From NCBI GenBank assembly GCA_038204565.1, contig JBBRCU010000014.1, positions 3,541 to 67,540 of the forward strand: a stretch of 64,000 bases of DNA, written 5' to 3'. Below are positions 6,639-18,624 of this stretch, piece by piece (within the stretch, counting starts at the first letter, position 1; the number at the start of each line of letters is the position of its first letter). Both the position numbers and the translations under genes were made by a program. The DNA comes from Candidatus Limnocylindrales bacterium. Lineage in GTDB: Bacteria > Chloroflexota > Limnocylindria > Limnocylindrales > CSP1-4. Below the pieces are notes generated by a model. It saw nothing but the letters and a program-made list of their open reading frames with translations, did not search any database and was not told where the DNA came from.

Positions 6639-7718
6639 TCAGCGTTCGCGCTGGCCCGCCGGGAGGTCGGGCGCGGGCGAAGGCCTGTGGCTGGCGGCCC
6701 AGCGGTCGCCCGCGAGACCCTCCAACAGGGCGTCGGCGGCGGCATAGGGATCGAGTCGATGGCCGGCCACGGCGGCGAGCGTCGCCTGGGTCGATTCCTC
6801 GAGCCCGGCGCCGTGGAGCCGGTCGCGCAGACGGTCCGCCACGATCGCCCAGACGAGGGCCTCGGCCCGGGCGAGGCGAGCGCTCCCGGTGGTCGGTGAG
6901 GCCGTCGCCGTCCGGTGTCGATCGAGCGCCTGGAGCAGCTCTGGGACCCCGGCGCCGGTCACCGCGGTGGTGACCAGCACCTCGGGCCGCTTCGGACGCG
7001 GGCGGTCGGCCGGGCCGGCGGGCACACCAGCCGCCGCGGGACCACTGCTCGCGACCAGCATGGCCCTGAGCTGGGCGGCGGTCCGCAGGGCACCGGGCTT
7101 GTCGCCCTTGTTGACGACGACCAGATCGGCGACCTCCAGCAGCCCCGCCTTGATCGCCTGGACCTCGTCGCCCATCTCCGGCGCCTCGAGGACGACGGTC
7201 GTATCGGCAGCCGCGGCGACCTCGACCTCGCTCTGGCCCGTTCCGACCGTCTCGACGAGGATCAGGTCGAACCCGGCAGCGTCGAGGACGGCGGTCGCGG
7301 CACCGGTCGTCGAGGCGAGACCGCCGGCGTGGCCGCGGGCCGCCATCGAGCGGATGAAGACGTCGTCGTCGCCGGCGTAGCTCTGCATTCGGACCCGATC
7401 GCCGAGGAGCGCGCCGCCGGTGATCGGCGAGGATGGATCGACCGCGACCACAGCGACCGGCCGGCCGGCCTTGCGGACCTCGCCGATCAGGGCCGCCACC
7501 AGGGTCGACTTGCCCGCGCCCGGTGGCCCGGTGATCCCGACCACGTGGGCCCGGCCCGCGAGCGGATAGAGCTCGCGGAGGGCGGGCTCGGCGACAGCGG
7601 TCCGGTTCTCGACGGCCGTCAGGAGCCGGGCGAGCGAGCGTCGGTCGCCGCCGCGGGCAGCGGCGACGAGCCGCGACGCACGCTCTGCCGGTGTCCCGAC
7701 ATCGGGCGTTCCCGCCAC
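6639..7718 (-). CDS. meaB: Methylmalonyl/isobutyryl-CoA mutase-associated GTPase (MeaB/ArgK family)
   Basis: Walker A GITGPPGAGKSTL is present, with DPSSPITGGALLGDRVRM and VVVNKGD (NKxD). The likely GTG start at 7718 lies 1 nt after the upstream gene stop (TGAcGTG). Confidence 0.85.
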   Translation of the reverse strand: MAGTPDVGTPAERASRLVAAARGGDRRSLARLLTAVENRTAVAEPALRELYPLAGRAHVVGITGPPGAGKSTLVAALIGEVRKAGRPVAVVAVDPSSPITGGALLGDRVRMQSYAGDDDVFIRSMAARGHAGGLASTTGAATAVLDAAGFDLILVETVGTGQSEVEVAAAADTTVVLEAPEMGDEVQAIKAGLLEVADLVVVNKGDKPGALRTAAQLRAMLVASSGPAAAGVPAGPADRPRPKRPEVLVTTAVTGAGVPELLQALDRHRTATASPTTGSARLARAEALVWAIVADRLRDRLHGAGLEESTQATLAAVAGHRLDPYAAADALLEGLAGDRWAASHRPSPAPDLPAGQRER

Positions 7719-7719
7719 G

Positions 7720-8124
7720 TCAGTCGCGCGGCCGGGCGTTCGTCCGCAGGAATTCGGCGACCTCGCTGATCGTGGTGCCCGGTCCGAAGACCCGGGCGAC
7801 CCCCGCCTCGGACAGGGCGGCGACATCGTCGTCGGGGATGATCCCGCCGGCCGTCACGAGGACGTCGTCGAGGCCCGCCTCCCGTAGCAGCTTCGTGATC
7901 CGCGGCAGGAGCGTCATGTGGGCACCGGACAGGATCGACAGGCCGACGACATCGACGTCCTCCTGGAGGGCAGCCGTCGCGATCATCTCGGGCGTCTGGC
8001 GAAGACCGGTGTAGACGACCTCGAACCCCTCGTCCCGCAACCCGCGGGCGAGGACCTTTGCGCCGCGGTCGTGGCCGTCGAGGCCGGGCTTGGCGATGAG
8101 CACCTTGATCGGTCGGTCGGTCAT
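7720..8124 (-). CDS. Acyl-CoA mutase small subunit, cobalamin-binding domain
   Basis: From the ATG at 8124: [38 protein letters not shown] (B12-binding DxHxxG motif), then SILSGAH and GGIIP. It is 134 aa. Confidence 0.9.
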
Positions 8125-8246: not shown

Positions 8247-8352
8247 GTCAACCAGACGCTGACTCAGATCGACGCTCAGCACGCTTGGACGGGTCTCAAT
8301 GGCGGCACGACCACCCGTGCTCCGACCCACCGTGAGTCAACGGATGAATGAC
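8247..8352. repeat. Copy A of a 106-nt structured intergenic repeat (unknown class; candidate ncRNA, cis-regulatory RNA or MITE-like element)
   Basis: An ungapped hand alignment to 17937..18042 gives 79/106 identities. The internal complementary blocks TGACTCA and TGAGTCA are conserved, as is the hairpin GCACG-N6-CGTGC. Confidence 0.7.
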
Positions 8353-8651: not shown

Positions 8652-9341
8652 CTACGCGCCGGGCGCGGCCCGGTCGAGATGGGCGAAGAACTCGGCGCGA
8701 GTGCGGTCGCGAGTCCGGAAGAGCCCGAGGACGGCCGACGTCGTCATGATCATCCCGGGCTTGCGGACCCCGCGCATCACCGCGCAGAGGTGGGTCGCCT
8801 CGATCACGACGCCGACGCCCTGCGGCTCGAGGCGCTCCTGGAGGAAGTCGGCAATCTGTTGGGTGAGCCGCTCCTGAACCTGGAGCCGGCGCGAGTACAT
8901 CTCGACCACGCGGGGGATCTTCGAGAGGCCGATCACCCGACCGCGCGGGATGTAGGCGACCGCGGCCCGGCCAAAGAACGGCAGGAGGTGGTGCTCGCAG
9001 AGGGAGTAGAACGGGACGTCCTTGACGACGACCATTTCGCTGTAGGCGACATCGAAGATCGCGCCGTTGATCAGCCGCTCCGGATCGACGTGGTAGCCGG
9101 CCGTCAGCTCCGTGTACATCCGGTGGACCCGCTCGGGCGTGCCCTGGAGGCCTTGGCGGTCGGGATCCTCGCCGATCTCGGTGATGATCTCGTGGACCGC
9201 GGCCTCGACCCTGCCGTTGCCGGCGTGCTTGCCCGCGCCCTCGATCAGCTGCCTGGCGCGGACCGGCTCCTCGCCGATCTCGGTTTCGATCTCGTCCACG
9301 ATCGCGCGAACATGGGGCGGCAGGTCAGCCTGGGTCGTCAT
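8652..9341 (-). CDS. folE: GTP cyclohydrolase I
   Basis: [41 protein letters not shown] and QVQERLT are present. The start is taken at the internal ATG ([11 protein letters not shown]). Confidence 0.9.
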
Positions 9342-9437
9342 CGAGGCGATGGTACGACGAGCGACCCGATCAGCTCCGCTTCGGGCCGTATGGCGACGGA
9401 TCAAATGTCGAGCACCTCGCGCGCCGGGGCCGATCCC

Positions 9438-9454
9438 GAGTCAGGTGGTGACTC
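9438..9454 (-). terminator. Hairpin GAGTCA-N5-TGACTC, 14 nt downstream of the HDAC-like gene stop
   Basis: gagtca(ggtgg)tgactc has the same TGAGTCA/TGACTCA arm sequence as the ends of the 106-nt repeat. Its position fits a terminator or REP-like stem-loop. Confidence 0.4.
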
Positions 9455-9467
9455 TGCGAACGCGGCC

Positions 9468-17217: not shown

Positions 17218-17883
17218 TCAGCTGCCGAACGCGTCGACGGCGGCGCGAACGACGGCGTCGTGGGCCTCCTTCGTCTGGATCTCCCGGATGAAGTCGGCGA
17301 TGACCGCGACCTCGATCCGGCCGGGCCCCTGCCAGACGACGACCGACTGGTACGACTCGCCATTGAGGACGTCGAGACGCCGGCCGCTGATCGCCGGGGT
17401 GACGGGATAGGTGCTGGTGTCGACCGAGGTGACGTTCTTGCCGTTGCGGGCACCGGTTTCGTAGAACTCGGCCAGCCAGGCCGGATCGAGGACCGTCCCG
17501 TCGACGGTCGTGAACATCGCGAGGCTCAGGCCACTGTCGGTGCCGGTCGACCAGGTGGCGCCCGCGAACCGGATCTCCTTGATGCCGTGGCCGGCGAGCG
17601 TCCCGAGACCCTTCGCCGTGCAGGCGCGGCCGGAATCGACCTCGCCCGGGGCAGTCCCCTTGTACGCCTTCGGCACCGTTGCCTCGAGATCCGGATAGGC
17701 GCCCGCCGCACTGCCGTCCGCCGTGCACGGGCCAGTCGGGTCGAAGGACGATCCGCAGGCGGCCAGGAGCAGCGGCGCGAAGAGGGCCAGGGTGGCGGCC
17801 ACGGTACGCCGCCGGACACCGCGTCCGGCGCCGCGGCGGATCGGCCGGCGCGCGACGGAGCCGAGCCGGGACAAGAGGGACAT
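17218..17883 (-). CDS. Lipoprotein, unknown function
   Basis: From the ATG at 17883: MSLLSRLGSVARRPIRRGAGRGVRRRTVAATLALFAPLLLAACGSS. This is a signal peptide with a lipobox LLAAC. The 45 upstream codons of the track ORF run through the repeat element. Confidence 0.75.
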   Translation of the reverse strand: MSLLSRLGSVARRPIRRGAGRGVRRRTVAATLALFAPLLLAACGSSFDPTGPCTADGSAAGAYPDLEATVPKAYKGTAPGEVDSGRACTAKGLGTLAGHGIKEIRFAGATWSTGTDSGLSLAMFTTVDGTVLDPAWLAEFYETGARNGKNVTSVDTSTYPVTPAISGRRLDVLNGESYQSVVVWQGPGRIEVAVIADFIREIQTKEAHDAVVRAAVDAFGS

Positions 17884-17936
17884 CGGGTCGATGATACGGC
17901 CCGCCGCCGATCGAGCCCAGGCACGGCCGCCGGCCC

Positions 17937-18042
17937 GTGAGTCAGCCGCTGACTCAGATCGACCGCCAGCGCGCTTGAAAGGGTCGGAATTGCGCCACGA
18001 CCACGCGTGCTTCCGCACCTACTGAGTCAACTGCTGACTCAC
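17937..18042. repeat. Copy B of the 106-nt structured intergenic repeat
   Basis: It matches 8247..8352 at 79/106 positions. Its 21-nt ends (17937-17957 and 18022-18042) are inverted repeats of each other at 19/21 positions. Each end is also self-complementary. Confidence 0.7.
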
Positions 18043-18515
18043 CGACCACCTCCGCTGGCATCGGCGGCCGGTCCTCCTGGGGTCAGTCTGATCCGTAATG
18101 GCGCGGCGGGCCGTCGCCGACCAAGGCGAGCCAGAACGCCGGGTCACTGGCTCCGGCGCTCCCGCTCTCGGTGACCGGTCGGCCGCGGAGCGGTGCGCCG
18201 CGACACCTGGTACGGCCGTCCCGGGGTGGTGCGTGGGTGCGCCCAACCATCGCCGCCCCAAAGTCGGGACCTGTCGGTCATTCCGTCGCGAGCCGGACCC
18301 GGCGTACGGTTCGACTGCGCCGTAACGCGAACATCCCGGGAACCACCTGGGGCGTCGGTCACGGATCAGGGGTCGGCCTTCGGTTCACTCGATGACGGTT
18401 CGAGCGCCGAGGATCCCGGACCCAGATCACGAGCCGAGTAACCACGGATCATCGGCCAGCAGGCCTGGGCCGCGGGACGGCAGAGCTCATCGCTCCGATT
18501 CATTCGCACGTCGAC

Positions 18516-18551
18516 GATCGCTCTCCGGGTTCTTCCGGGGAGCGATCTTTT
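18516..18551 (+). terminator. Intrinsic terminator-like hairpin with a T-tract on the + strand
   Basis: gatcgctctccgg / ccggggagcgatc forms a 13-bp stem with one mismatch, followed by tttt. On the minus strand it lies 73 nt downstream of the J-domain gene but has no U-tract there. Confidence 0.5.
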
Positions 18552-18624
18552 CGTGTGGGACCCAGGTGTGCCGGTGGAGGTTCGGTCGCTGGTCGCTGGT
18601 CCGCTGGTCGCCGGCGGGGCCCGA

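Follow-up and report, generated by a model that had tools for sequence, protein, structure and literature searches.

A dispersed, imperfectly palindromic intergenic repeat family of REPIN/ERIC/MITE-like kind in a Limnocylindrales genus of the Chloroflexota

Introduction

The 64,000-nt stretch of DNA analysed here (the window; positions 3541-67540 of contig C14) belongs to a draft genome of 3.2 Mb in 84 contigs, with 70% G+C and a completeness of 88%. It holds two similar non-coding segments, copies A and B, each lying ahead of a minus-strand gene, and one of these genes encodes a B12-binding mutase subunit. This arrangement raises the question of whether the segments are regulatory leaders of the genes beside them or members of something that is spread independently of those genes. 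The initial annotation, made from the letters of the window, had offered three readings, namely a cis-regulatory 5' UTR RNA, a small RNA and a REP/MITE-like DNA element. The copies were considered in the window, in the whole genome, in the genus and in related genera.

Two related segments in the window

Copies A and B (8247-8352 and 17937-18042) align without gaps at an identity of about 74-78%, and of 74% across the 104-nt element itself, which is close to the 79 of 106 positions counted by hand in the initial annotation. When copy A is used as a BLAST query against the genome, copy B is matched with E=2e-19, so the likeness goes beyond chance. The conserved blocks named earlier (GCTGACTCAGATCGAC, CACGACCAC and TGAGTCAAC) are present in the segments, and the distances given to the downstream genes hold, as the B12-binding subunit starts at 8124 and a 221-aa gene at 17883. 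The complementary TGACTCA and TGAGTCA blocks described near the two ends are also present; they are the inner halves of two terminal TGAGTC-N7-GACTCA palindromes rather than a feature of their own. Two further features that had been taken as conserved are not family-wide in the family alignment, where the GCACG/CGTGC hairpin is common to copies A and B only and the GGGTC...GACCC pairing is complete in copy A only.

Copy B is the top-scoring member of the family and stands near its consensus (E=3e-22 in the profile search and 104 bits with the covariance model). In copy A the inner half-sites are intact (TGACTCA at 8260-8266 and TGAGTCA at 8333-8339) and the outer ones have degenerated (TCAACC at 8248-8253 and TGAATGA at 8345-8351). 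Copies A and B are ordinary family members, of which B is intact and A partly decayed. A third copy occupies the 126-nt gap (9342-9467) between the start of folE and the stop of a deacetylase gene. The 221-aa gene beside copy B gave no Pfam match. The coordinates are collected in Table 1.

Table 1. Positions of the repeat copies, of the parts of copy B and of the genes flanking copy A
Feature	Position	Strand	Description
MeaB gene	6639-7718		after the B12-binding mutase small subunit
B12-binding mutase small subunit	7720-8124	minus	flanks copy A; MeaB gene follows
Copy A	8248-8351	+	partly decayed repeat; between folE stop (8652) and B12-binding mutase subunit start (8124)
folE (GTP cyclohydrolase I)	8652-9341	minus	flanks copy A
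Third copy	9384-9454		degenerate, right end only; palindrome GAGTCAGGTGGTGACTC at 9438-9454
Copy B	17938-18041	+	intact 104-nt unit; 54 nt upstream of 221-aa minus-strand gene
Left terminal palindrome, copy B	17938-17956		TGAGTCAGCCGCTGACTCA (TGAGTC-N7-GACTCA)
Left subterminal box, copy B	17967-17978	+	CAGCGCGCTTGA; family consensus CAGCRCGCGTGG; inverted relative to right box
Asymmetric central motif, copy B	17986-17994	+	GGAATTGCG; family GGAATCGCGAC, sister genera GGAATCGG; sets element polarity
Right subterminal box, copy B	18001-18011	+	CCACGCGTGCT; inverted partner of left box
Right terminal palindrome, copy B	18023-18041		TGAGTCAACTGCTGACTCA; starts exactly 85 bp past left palindrome

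Between copy B and a DnaJ-domain gene lies a separate non-coding block of about 330-400 nt (plus strand, about 18230-18560), which is conserved in many genomes of the genus (e.g. L162, L176, L179, L180, L183 and L185-L189). It ends with a terminator-like hairpin on the plus strand (18516-18547) and has no Rfam match at E≤1. This block is a candidate for a large structured RNA or leader.

Copy number and gene context

Only two copies had been counted in the initial annotation, and genome-wide searches give about 35. Iterated nhmmer started from the A/B pair converges on 35 loci (E≤1e-3). The covariance-model scan of the genome that had been proposed as a check finds this 35-locus family too, since model R1, built from 23 copies, recovers the same loci as nhmmer. 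None of the copies overlaps a called gene, and the intergenic share of the genome is just about 12% (codon-usage-based calls, 2831 genes covering 88% of the genome). The flanking genes are tandem for 21 copies, convergent for 7 and divergent for 4, and 3 copies lie at contig ends. In the tandem contexts, 11 elements are oriented with the flanking genes and 10 opposite to them, and they are spread evenly over the interval from the upstream stop to the downstream start. Genes next to the copies are functionally unrelated. That A and B share one orientation relative to their downstream genes is true of this pair; the pattern does not extend to the family, whose orientation is unrelated to gene direction, and the agreement of the two is therefore a coincidence.

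Copies are scattered singly or stand in arrays without ORFs, and contigs C1 and C32 each begin with a tandem array of three units. The position of such arrays at contig ends explains why assemblies of this soil lineage break at the repeat. Several pairs of copies lie 5-10 kb apart, and the genes they enclose are housekeeping ones, folE and those for the methylmalonyl-CoA mutase subunits among them; about 5 pairs are closer than 10 kb, against about 3 expected (from the nhmmer locus coordinates). Mean pairwise identity among the copies is 60%, and pairs above 76% are exclusively neighbours inside tandem arrays. With no near-identical copies outside these arrays, nothing points to recent transposition.

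Anatomy of the repeat unit

The family alignment defines an intact unit of 104 nt that carries a 19-bp palindrome, TGAGTC-N7-GACTCA, at both ends. In the genome, GAGTC-N6/7-GACTC occurs 51 times, and the reversed control, GACTC...GAGTC, occurs twice at those two spacings. Two subfamilies can be told apart. The short one has an N7 spacer, a 104-nt unit and palindrome starts exactly 85 bp apart; the long one has an N6 spacer, a unit of 113-114 nt, a central insertion of 10-11 nt and palindromes 95-96 bp apart. Internal to the palindromes are a short ATC-like motif and a variable stretch, followed by inverted inner boxes of the GCACGC/GCGTGC type (CAGCRCGCGTGG on the left, CCACGCNNGCTG on the right). 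The two arms mirror each other as inverted copies, so that terminal inverted repeats are present, and the asymmetric centre, GGAATCGCGAC, gives the element its polarity. The element termini start with TG and end with CA, which we take to resemble the ends of the IS3/IS481 type.

Nearly all short-form copies in this genome and its relatives are 104 nt long, and the GAGTC/GACTC half-sites and their 85-bp spacing are nearly invariant against an overall identity of 60%. The better-kept half-sites and length could reflect selection for a host function, and ascertainment of the copies through the same motifs contributes to this pattern. A reading of the half-sites as targets of GANTC methylation or restriction was dropped because GANTC is not avoided, the observed/expected frequency of GAGTC and GACTC in the genome being 0.93.

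Folding, symmetry and the level of selection

Most copies fold in silico into a single long imperfect hairpin (-34 to -66 kcal/mol; z-scores of about 0 to -6.4), and the predicted folds are alike on both strands. Of the cells in the named outer and inner helices, 73% pair, compared with 27-36% in slid controls. Covariation in these helices is weak (48 double-change cells versus 37±5 in shuffles), and RNAalifold returned an empty consensus structure for the copies. Stem mismatches of the G·T and A·C kinds are about equally frequent, 51 versus 59 in this genome and 127 versus 97 in relatives, which assigns the symmetry to the DNA and not to one transcript strand. In the variable segments of the arms, complementarity to a copy's own partner does not exceed that to partners taken from other copies (p=0.57 and p=0.21), which speaks against the maintenance of a full-length hairpin. 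Both results tell against selection on an RNA strand. The symmetry appears to reside in inverted motif blocks that are conserved as DNA, and not in a maintained full-length RNA helix.

The comparison with Rfam agrees with the earlier statement that no known riboswitch fits, as the copies gave no match at the gathering score or at relaxed values (E≤1-5). Neither copy A nor copy B has a sigma-70-type promoter or an intrinsic terminator. A leader or riboswitch in the 5' UTR was rejected on the mixed contexts, the random orientation, the unrelated neighbour genes and the lack of an Rfam hit. Of the three readings first offered, the REP/MITE-like DNA element stood; the cis-regulatory 5' UTR RNA and the small RNA fell on the presence of some 35 copies in random orientation.

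Filled and empty sites

The site upstream of folE, which holds the third copy in the window, contains a full copy in congener G019 and is empty in about 15 species, where about 15-30 nt lie between conserved flanks. At the site of copy A, the gap between folE and the mutase gene ranges from 161 to 1268 nt among species, and a family member is present in only one other. In two genomes (G339 and G010; L141 and L142), the same gap contains a different palindromic element of about 150 nt with the ends GGACTCGTACGGCGTCAAT ... GCGCCSTACGAGTCC. Intergenic DNA of the genus thus hosts more than one repeat family.

The site of copy B is filled only here, and the locus is rearranged, so no clean empty site is available for comparison and the exact element boundaries are not readable. 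Comparison of window positions 17884-18230 with L161 and L163-L175 showed that most congeners start a divergent FAD-dependent oxidoreductase-like gene about 20 nt from the 221-aa gene. This oxidoreductase-like gene is missing here and in a few other genomes, and copy B fills the gap here. No clean excision joint at the locus was found in metagenome contigs, which break inside the repeat; the joints that were seen derive from other species and were set aside. The sequencing runs found to contain this locus are all DNA metagenomes.

Distribution in the genus and class

The short form is multi-copy in 18 of the 25 genomes of the genus, with 1-64 model matches when both strands are counted. Among congeneric species, copy number runs from none detected to a few dozen. 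In three genomes (G340, G342 and G337), which are the well-assembled ones in the group whose folE is most similar, intact palindromes number just 1-3 per genome, and the control pattern gives 0-1. The short form is absent from 16 small genomes of a sister family and was found in 7 of the 301 genomes sampled across the class. The repeat model found no match among viral contigs, and carriage by phages was rejected on that result.

A scan for the exact double-palindrome pattern, which covered one genome per GTDB species, returned 101 stretches with NCBI titles from many phyla. A spread across phyla was rejected after use of the covariance model and inspection. The true homologues are MAGs of the same genus, and the remainder are unrelated coding or tandem repeats. 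The same-genus MAGs are named 'Candidatus Limnocylindrales bacterium', 'Chloroflexota bacterium', 'uncultured Chloroflexia bacterium' or 'Verrucomicrobiia bacterium' at NCBI. Several of their loci have the same coordinates and scores as loci already in the genus set (L073=L018/G007, L075=L019/G003, L041=L020/G022, L107=L021/G014, L034=L022/G021 and L051=L027/G015). The element is confined to one lineage and does not span phyla.

A MAG of 5.1 Mb labelled Acidimicrobiales (Actinomycetota; L036) has one 58-bit match to the repeat model on a contig of 22.9 kb. This MAG derives from a study that also yielded a same-genus MAG, and the contig is probably mis-binned. Unrelated MAGs of Verrucomicrobiaceae and Chitinophagaceae (L031, L103, L032-L033 and others) carry long tandem arrays of 21-bp units, each of which contains TGAGTC-N7-GACTCA, that is, one palindrome per two helical turns. 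In planctomycete MAGs there are REP-like hairpins of the form GAGTCTC-N3-GAGACTC.

A shared core with exchanged ends in sister genera

The long-subfamily model, R2, finds relatives in 8 of the 39 genera of the family. Relatives in sister genera keep a core, AGCGAGCGTGGC ... CGGAATCGG ... GYCACGCTCGCTGA, and set other terminal inverted repeats around it, such as ATTAC..GTAAT, GAGCAC..GTGCTC and AATTCAnnnnTGACTC. In genus g27 the terminal repeat is ATTAC-N4/5-GTAAT, and in genus g11 it is mostly GAGCAC-N5-GTGCTC. Genus g69 has a 20-bp terminal inverted repeat, AATTCAnnnnTGACTCGG, that is not self-palindromic. The window's own genus includes a flipped subfamily with GACTC-N7-GAGTC at both ends. 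Left and right ends always change jointly between lineages. Such joint change is what the terminal repeats of mobile elements usually show, and it fits pairing of one end with the other and a single reader protein of drifting specificity equally well. In genome G323 of genus g27 (L218-L232), a tandem duplication of about 15-18 nt, specific to each copy, lies to the left of the element (e.g. TGATGCCCCACGCGCCG twice), and the right flank has short G-rich repeats of the GGACG/GGGGC type.

Search for a mobilising enzyme, target-site duplications and a parent element

The Y1_Tnp domain (PF01797), which represents RAYT and the TnpA of IS200/IS605, had no match in this genome and 19 congeners; the same search was positive in 6 of 14 control genomes, including E. 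coli. This absence is strong but not absolute, as the draft genomes are 58-92% complete. Boundary repeats of 2-5 bp, which target-site duplication would leave, occur in 69 copies at about the rate of flank pairs mixed between copies. A 3-bp direct repeat is present at the boundaries of 5 of the 69 copies (2.3 expected), so the apparent excess of 3-bp duplications in this genome alone is not significant across the whole set and was rejected. The mark proposed for a plain MITE had been dozens of copies in any gene context with target-site duplications. About 35 copies in mixed contexts were found and the duplications were not, and for want of the latter a plain MITE is not shown; the likeness to a REPIN or an ERIC repeat is greater.

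No autonomous parent was seen, as true ends enclose no gene in this genome (G000), in six well-assembled congeners or in G323. Genes that did lie between ends were rejected as parents: those for a glycosyltransferase, a B12-binding protein and a DnaB-like ATPase are ordinary genes, and the other cases are chance near-palindromes in coding sequence. Pairs of ends kilobases apart were likewise not found in the well-assembled relatives.

Comparison with known repeat families

The copies probably belong to a dispersed, non-coding, imperfectly palindromic intergenic repeat family of the kind that includes REPINs/BIMEs, ERIC/IRU and Correia-type MITEs. REPINs are the closest parallel, and ERIC and Correia-type MITEs are also close. 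REPINs and BIMEs are REP doublets that form hairpins and are mobilised by RAYT transposases in Pseudomonas and Enterobacteria. The cognate RAYT, a Y1 HUH transposase, is usually flanked by REPs. The hallmarks of REPINs are two conserved inverted ends at a fixed spacing, a less conserved spacer, single-end remnants and clusters (PMC3116915).

The present family shares with REPINs a unit of about 100 nt whose two highly conserved ends are inverted and stand a set distance apart, 85 bp in this family and 71 bp in the GI REPIN of P. fluorescens SBW25 (PMC3116915). Its spacer is also less conserved, its copies are strictly extragenic and numerous in each genome, and the predicted fold is a long hairpin or an alternative 'clover'. 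Decayed single-end remnants, tandem clusters and the lack of target-site duplication complete the likeness. The two differ in that a RAYT/Y1 transposase was not found in the 20 genomes and in that the host is a member of the Chloroflexota. Across genera, conservation is higher in the interior core than at the ends, which is the reverse of the situation in REPINs. The family also has no dominant master sequence, its copies being about 60% identical, and compensatory changes in the spacer were not found.

ERIC (IRU) sequences of Enterobacteriaceae and Vibrio are imperfect palindromes of about 127 bp with a conserved central region, and they are intergenic in either orientation. Their copy number varies widely between related species, and long variants arise through internal insertions. 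We know of no transposase identified for ERIC. ERICs of Yersinia have been reported with TA target duplications. The present repeat resembles ERIC in size, palindromic form, conserved centre, intergenic placement in either orientation and varied copy number, and no transposase has been assigned to either. Its long subfamily, with 10-11 extra nt, recalls the long ERIC variants. It has no sequence similarity to ERIC, no target duplication was seen, and its self-palindromic termini are particular to it.

Correia elements (NEMIS) and other bacterial MITEs are likewise short and non-coding, with terminal inverted repeats and dozens of copies, and their sites are filled or empty between relatives. 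The lineage-specific terminal repeats of the present family also look as if they co-evolve with a cognate enzyme, as in such elements. The difference is that neither a target-site duplication nor a parent insertion sequence with matching ends was found. The repeat is a new family of this general REPIN/ERIC/MITE-like kind. It is filed under the general kind because no RAYT was found, as a REPIN would require, and neither target-site duplication nor a parent insertion sequence, as a classical MITE would. As far as the literature search reached, no earlier description of a REPIN/ERIC-like family in Chloroflexota was found.

How the family may have spread

Copies of the family would have spread, now or formerly, as DNA. 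An enzyme supplied in trans may recognise both terminal inverted repeats, either as single-stranded DNA hairpins or as duplex sites for binding by a dimer. After spreading, the copies would decay in place. By prediction, a copy that falls within a neighbouring mRNA can form a long hairpin (-34 to -66 kcal/mol), which might happen to stop exonucleases or hinder read-through. Any such effect would be incidental rather than gene-specific control.

A more specific form of the proposal is tentative and rather doubtful. It describes a REPIN-like replicator without a RAYT or IS200-type enzyme, in which the core AGCGAGCGTGGC..GGAATCGG..GYCACGCTCGCT is conserved and the ends are swapped by lineage in step with an unrecognised, co-evolving partner protein. 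The core is kept across at least 8 genera of this uncultured Limnocylindrales-like family, with the end types GAGTC..GACTC, GACTC..GAGTC, ATTAC..GTAAT, GAGCAC..GTGCTC and AATTCA....TGACTC distributed by lineage. If it is true, the partner of the swapped ends could be a mobilising enzyme of a new kind or else a domesticated DNA-binding protein with the paired palindromes as its target.

Alternative explanations

The main rival holds that the copies serve the host as operator pairs for a dimeric DNA-binding protein, about 8 helical turns (85 bp) apart, in nucleoid architecture or a dispersed regulon. It has a precedent, as some REP/BIME elements bind IHF or gyrase. The nearly invariant half-sites and spacing at just 60% identity speak for it, together with DNA-level symmetry (about equal G·T and A·C mismatches), variable arm segments whose complementarity does not exceed that between different copies, as if a full-length hairpin were not maintained, and the failure to find target-site duplications, a transposase or near-identical copies. 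It was kept in consideration for its well-kept half-sites and spacing, the lack of recent copies and a hairpin that seems not to be maintained at full length. Patchy distribution weakens it, with copy number in congeners ranging from none detected to a few dozen and three of the closest relatives almost without intact palindromes. It is further weakened by the lack of positional conservation, since copies are not at the same places in the orthologous loci examined and favour no position relative to gene starts or ends. Sister genera replace the terminal motif with unrelated palindromes, and in one genus the ends are not self-palindromic at all; the tandem arrays and decayed remnants are typical traits of selfish repeats. 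On this balance a host-serving role is unlikely.

A structured RNA, whether a leader or riboswitch, a multi-copy small RNA or a transcript stabiliser or terminator selected as RNA, is still less probable. The predicted folds are stable (z-scores down to about -6), the terminal stems compensate between lineages, the core is conserved across genera, and the 48 double-change cells against 37±5 give weak covariation; all of these would suit an RNA. Against them stand the empty RNAalifold consensus, the lack of any Rfam family even at E≤1-5, and G·U pairs that are not in excess over A·C. Orientation is random relative to flanking genes, convergent gene ends are among the contexts, the neighbouring genes are functionally unrelated, and copies A and B have neither a sigma-70-like promoter nor an intrinsic terminator.

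Recombination sites of the integron or Xer kind, that is, attC or dif-type imperfect palindromes flanking cassettes, are suggested by an imperfect palindrome of about 100 nt, by short inverted arms round a 7-nt spacer that formally resemble the core site of a tyrosine recombinase and by several copy pairs 5-10 kb apart, but they are highly improbable, because no RYYYAAC/GTTRRRY (R''/R') boxes were seen on reading the alignment by eye (the ends read TGAGTC...GACTCA), the copies are dispersed as single units and do not form cassette arrays, paired copies enclose housekeeping genes (folE and methylmalonyl-CoA mutase subunits among them) and the clustering of pairs within 10 kb is near chance (about 5 versus about 3).

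Significance

The reading of the copies as a dispersed repeat family has a direct consequence for annotation, since it removes a false riboswitch or small-RNA lead ahead of methylmalonyl-CoA mutase genes. It documents a REPIN/ERIC-like repeat family in Chloroflexota, with no RAYT found in the 20 genomes searched. The repeat could serve in strain typing of these uncultured soil bacteria. Should there be a partner protein, its co-variation with the termini, which are exchanged by lineage round a conserved core, would offer a direct way to find it.
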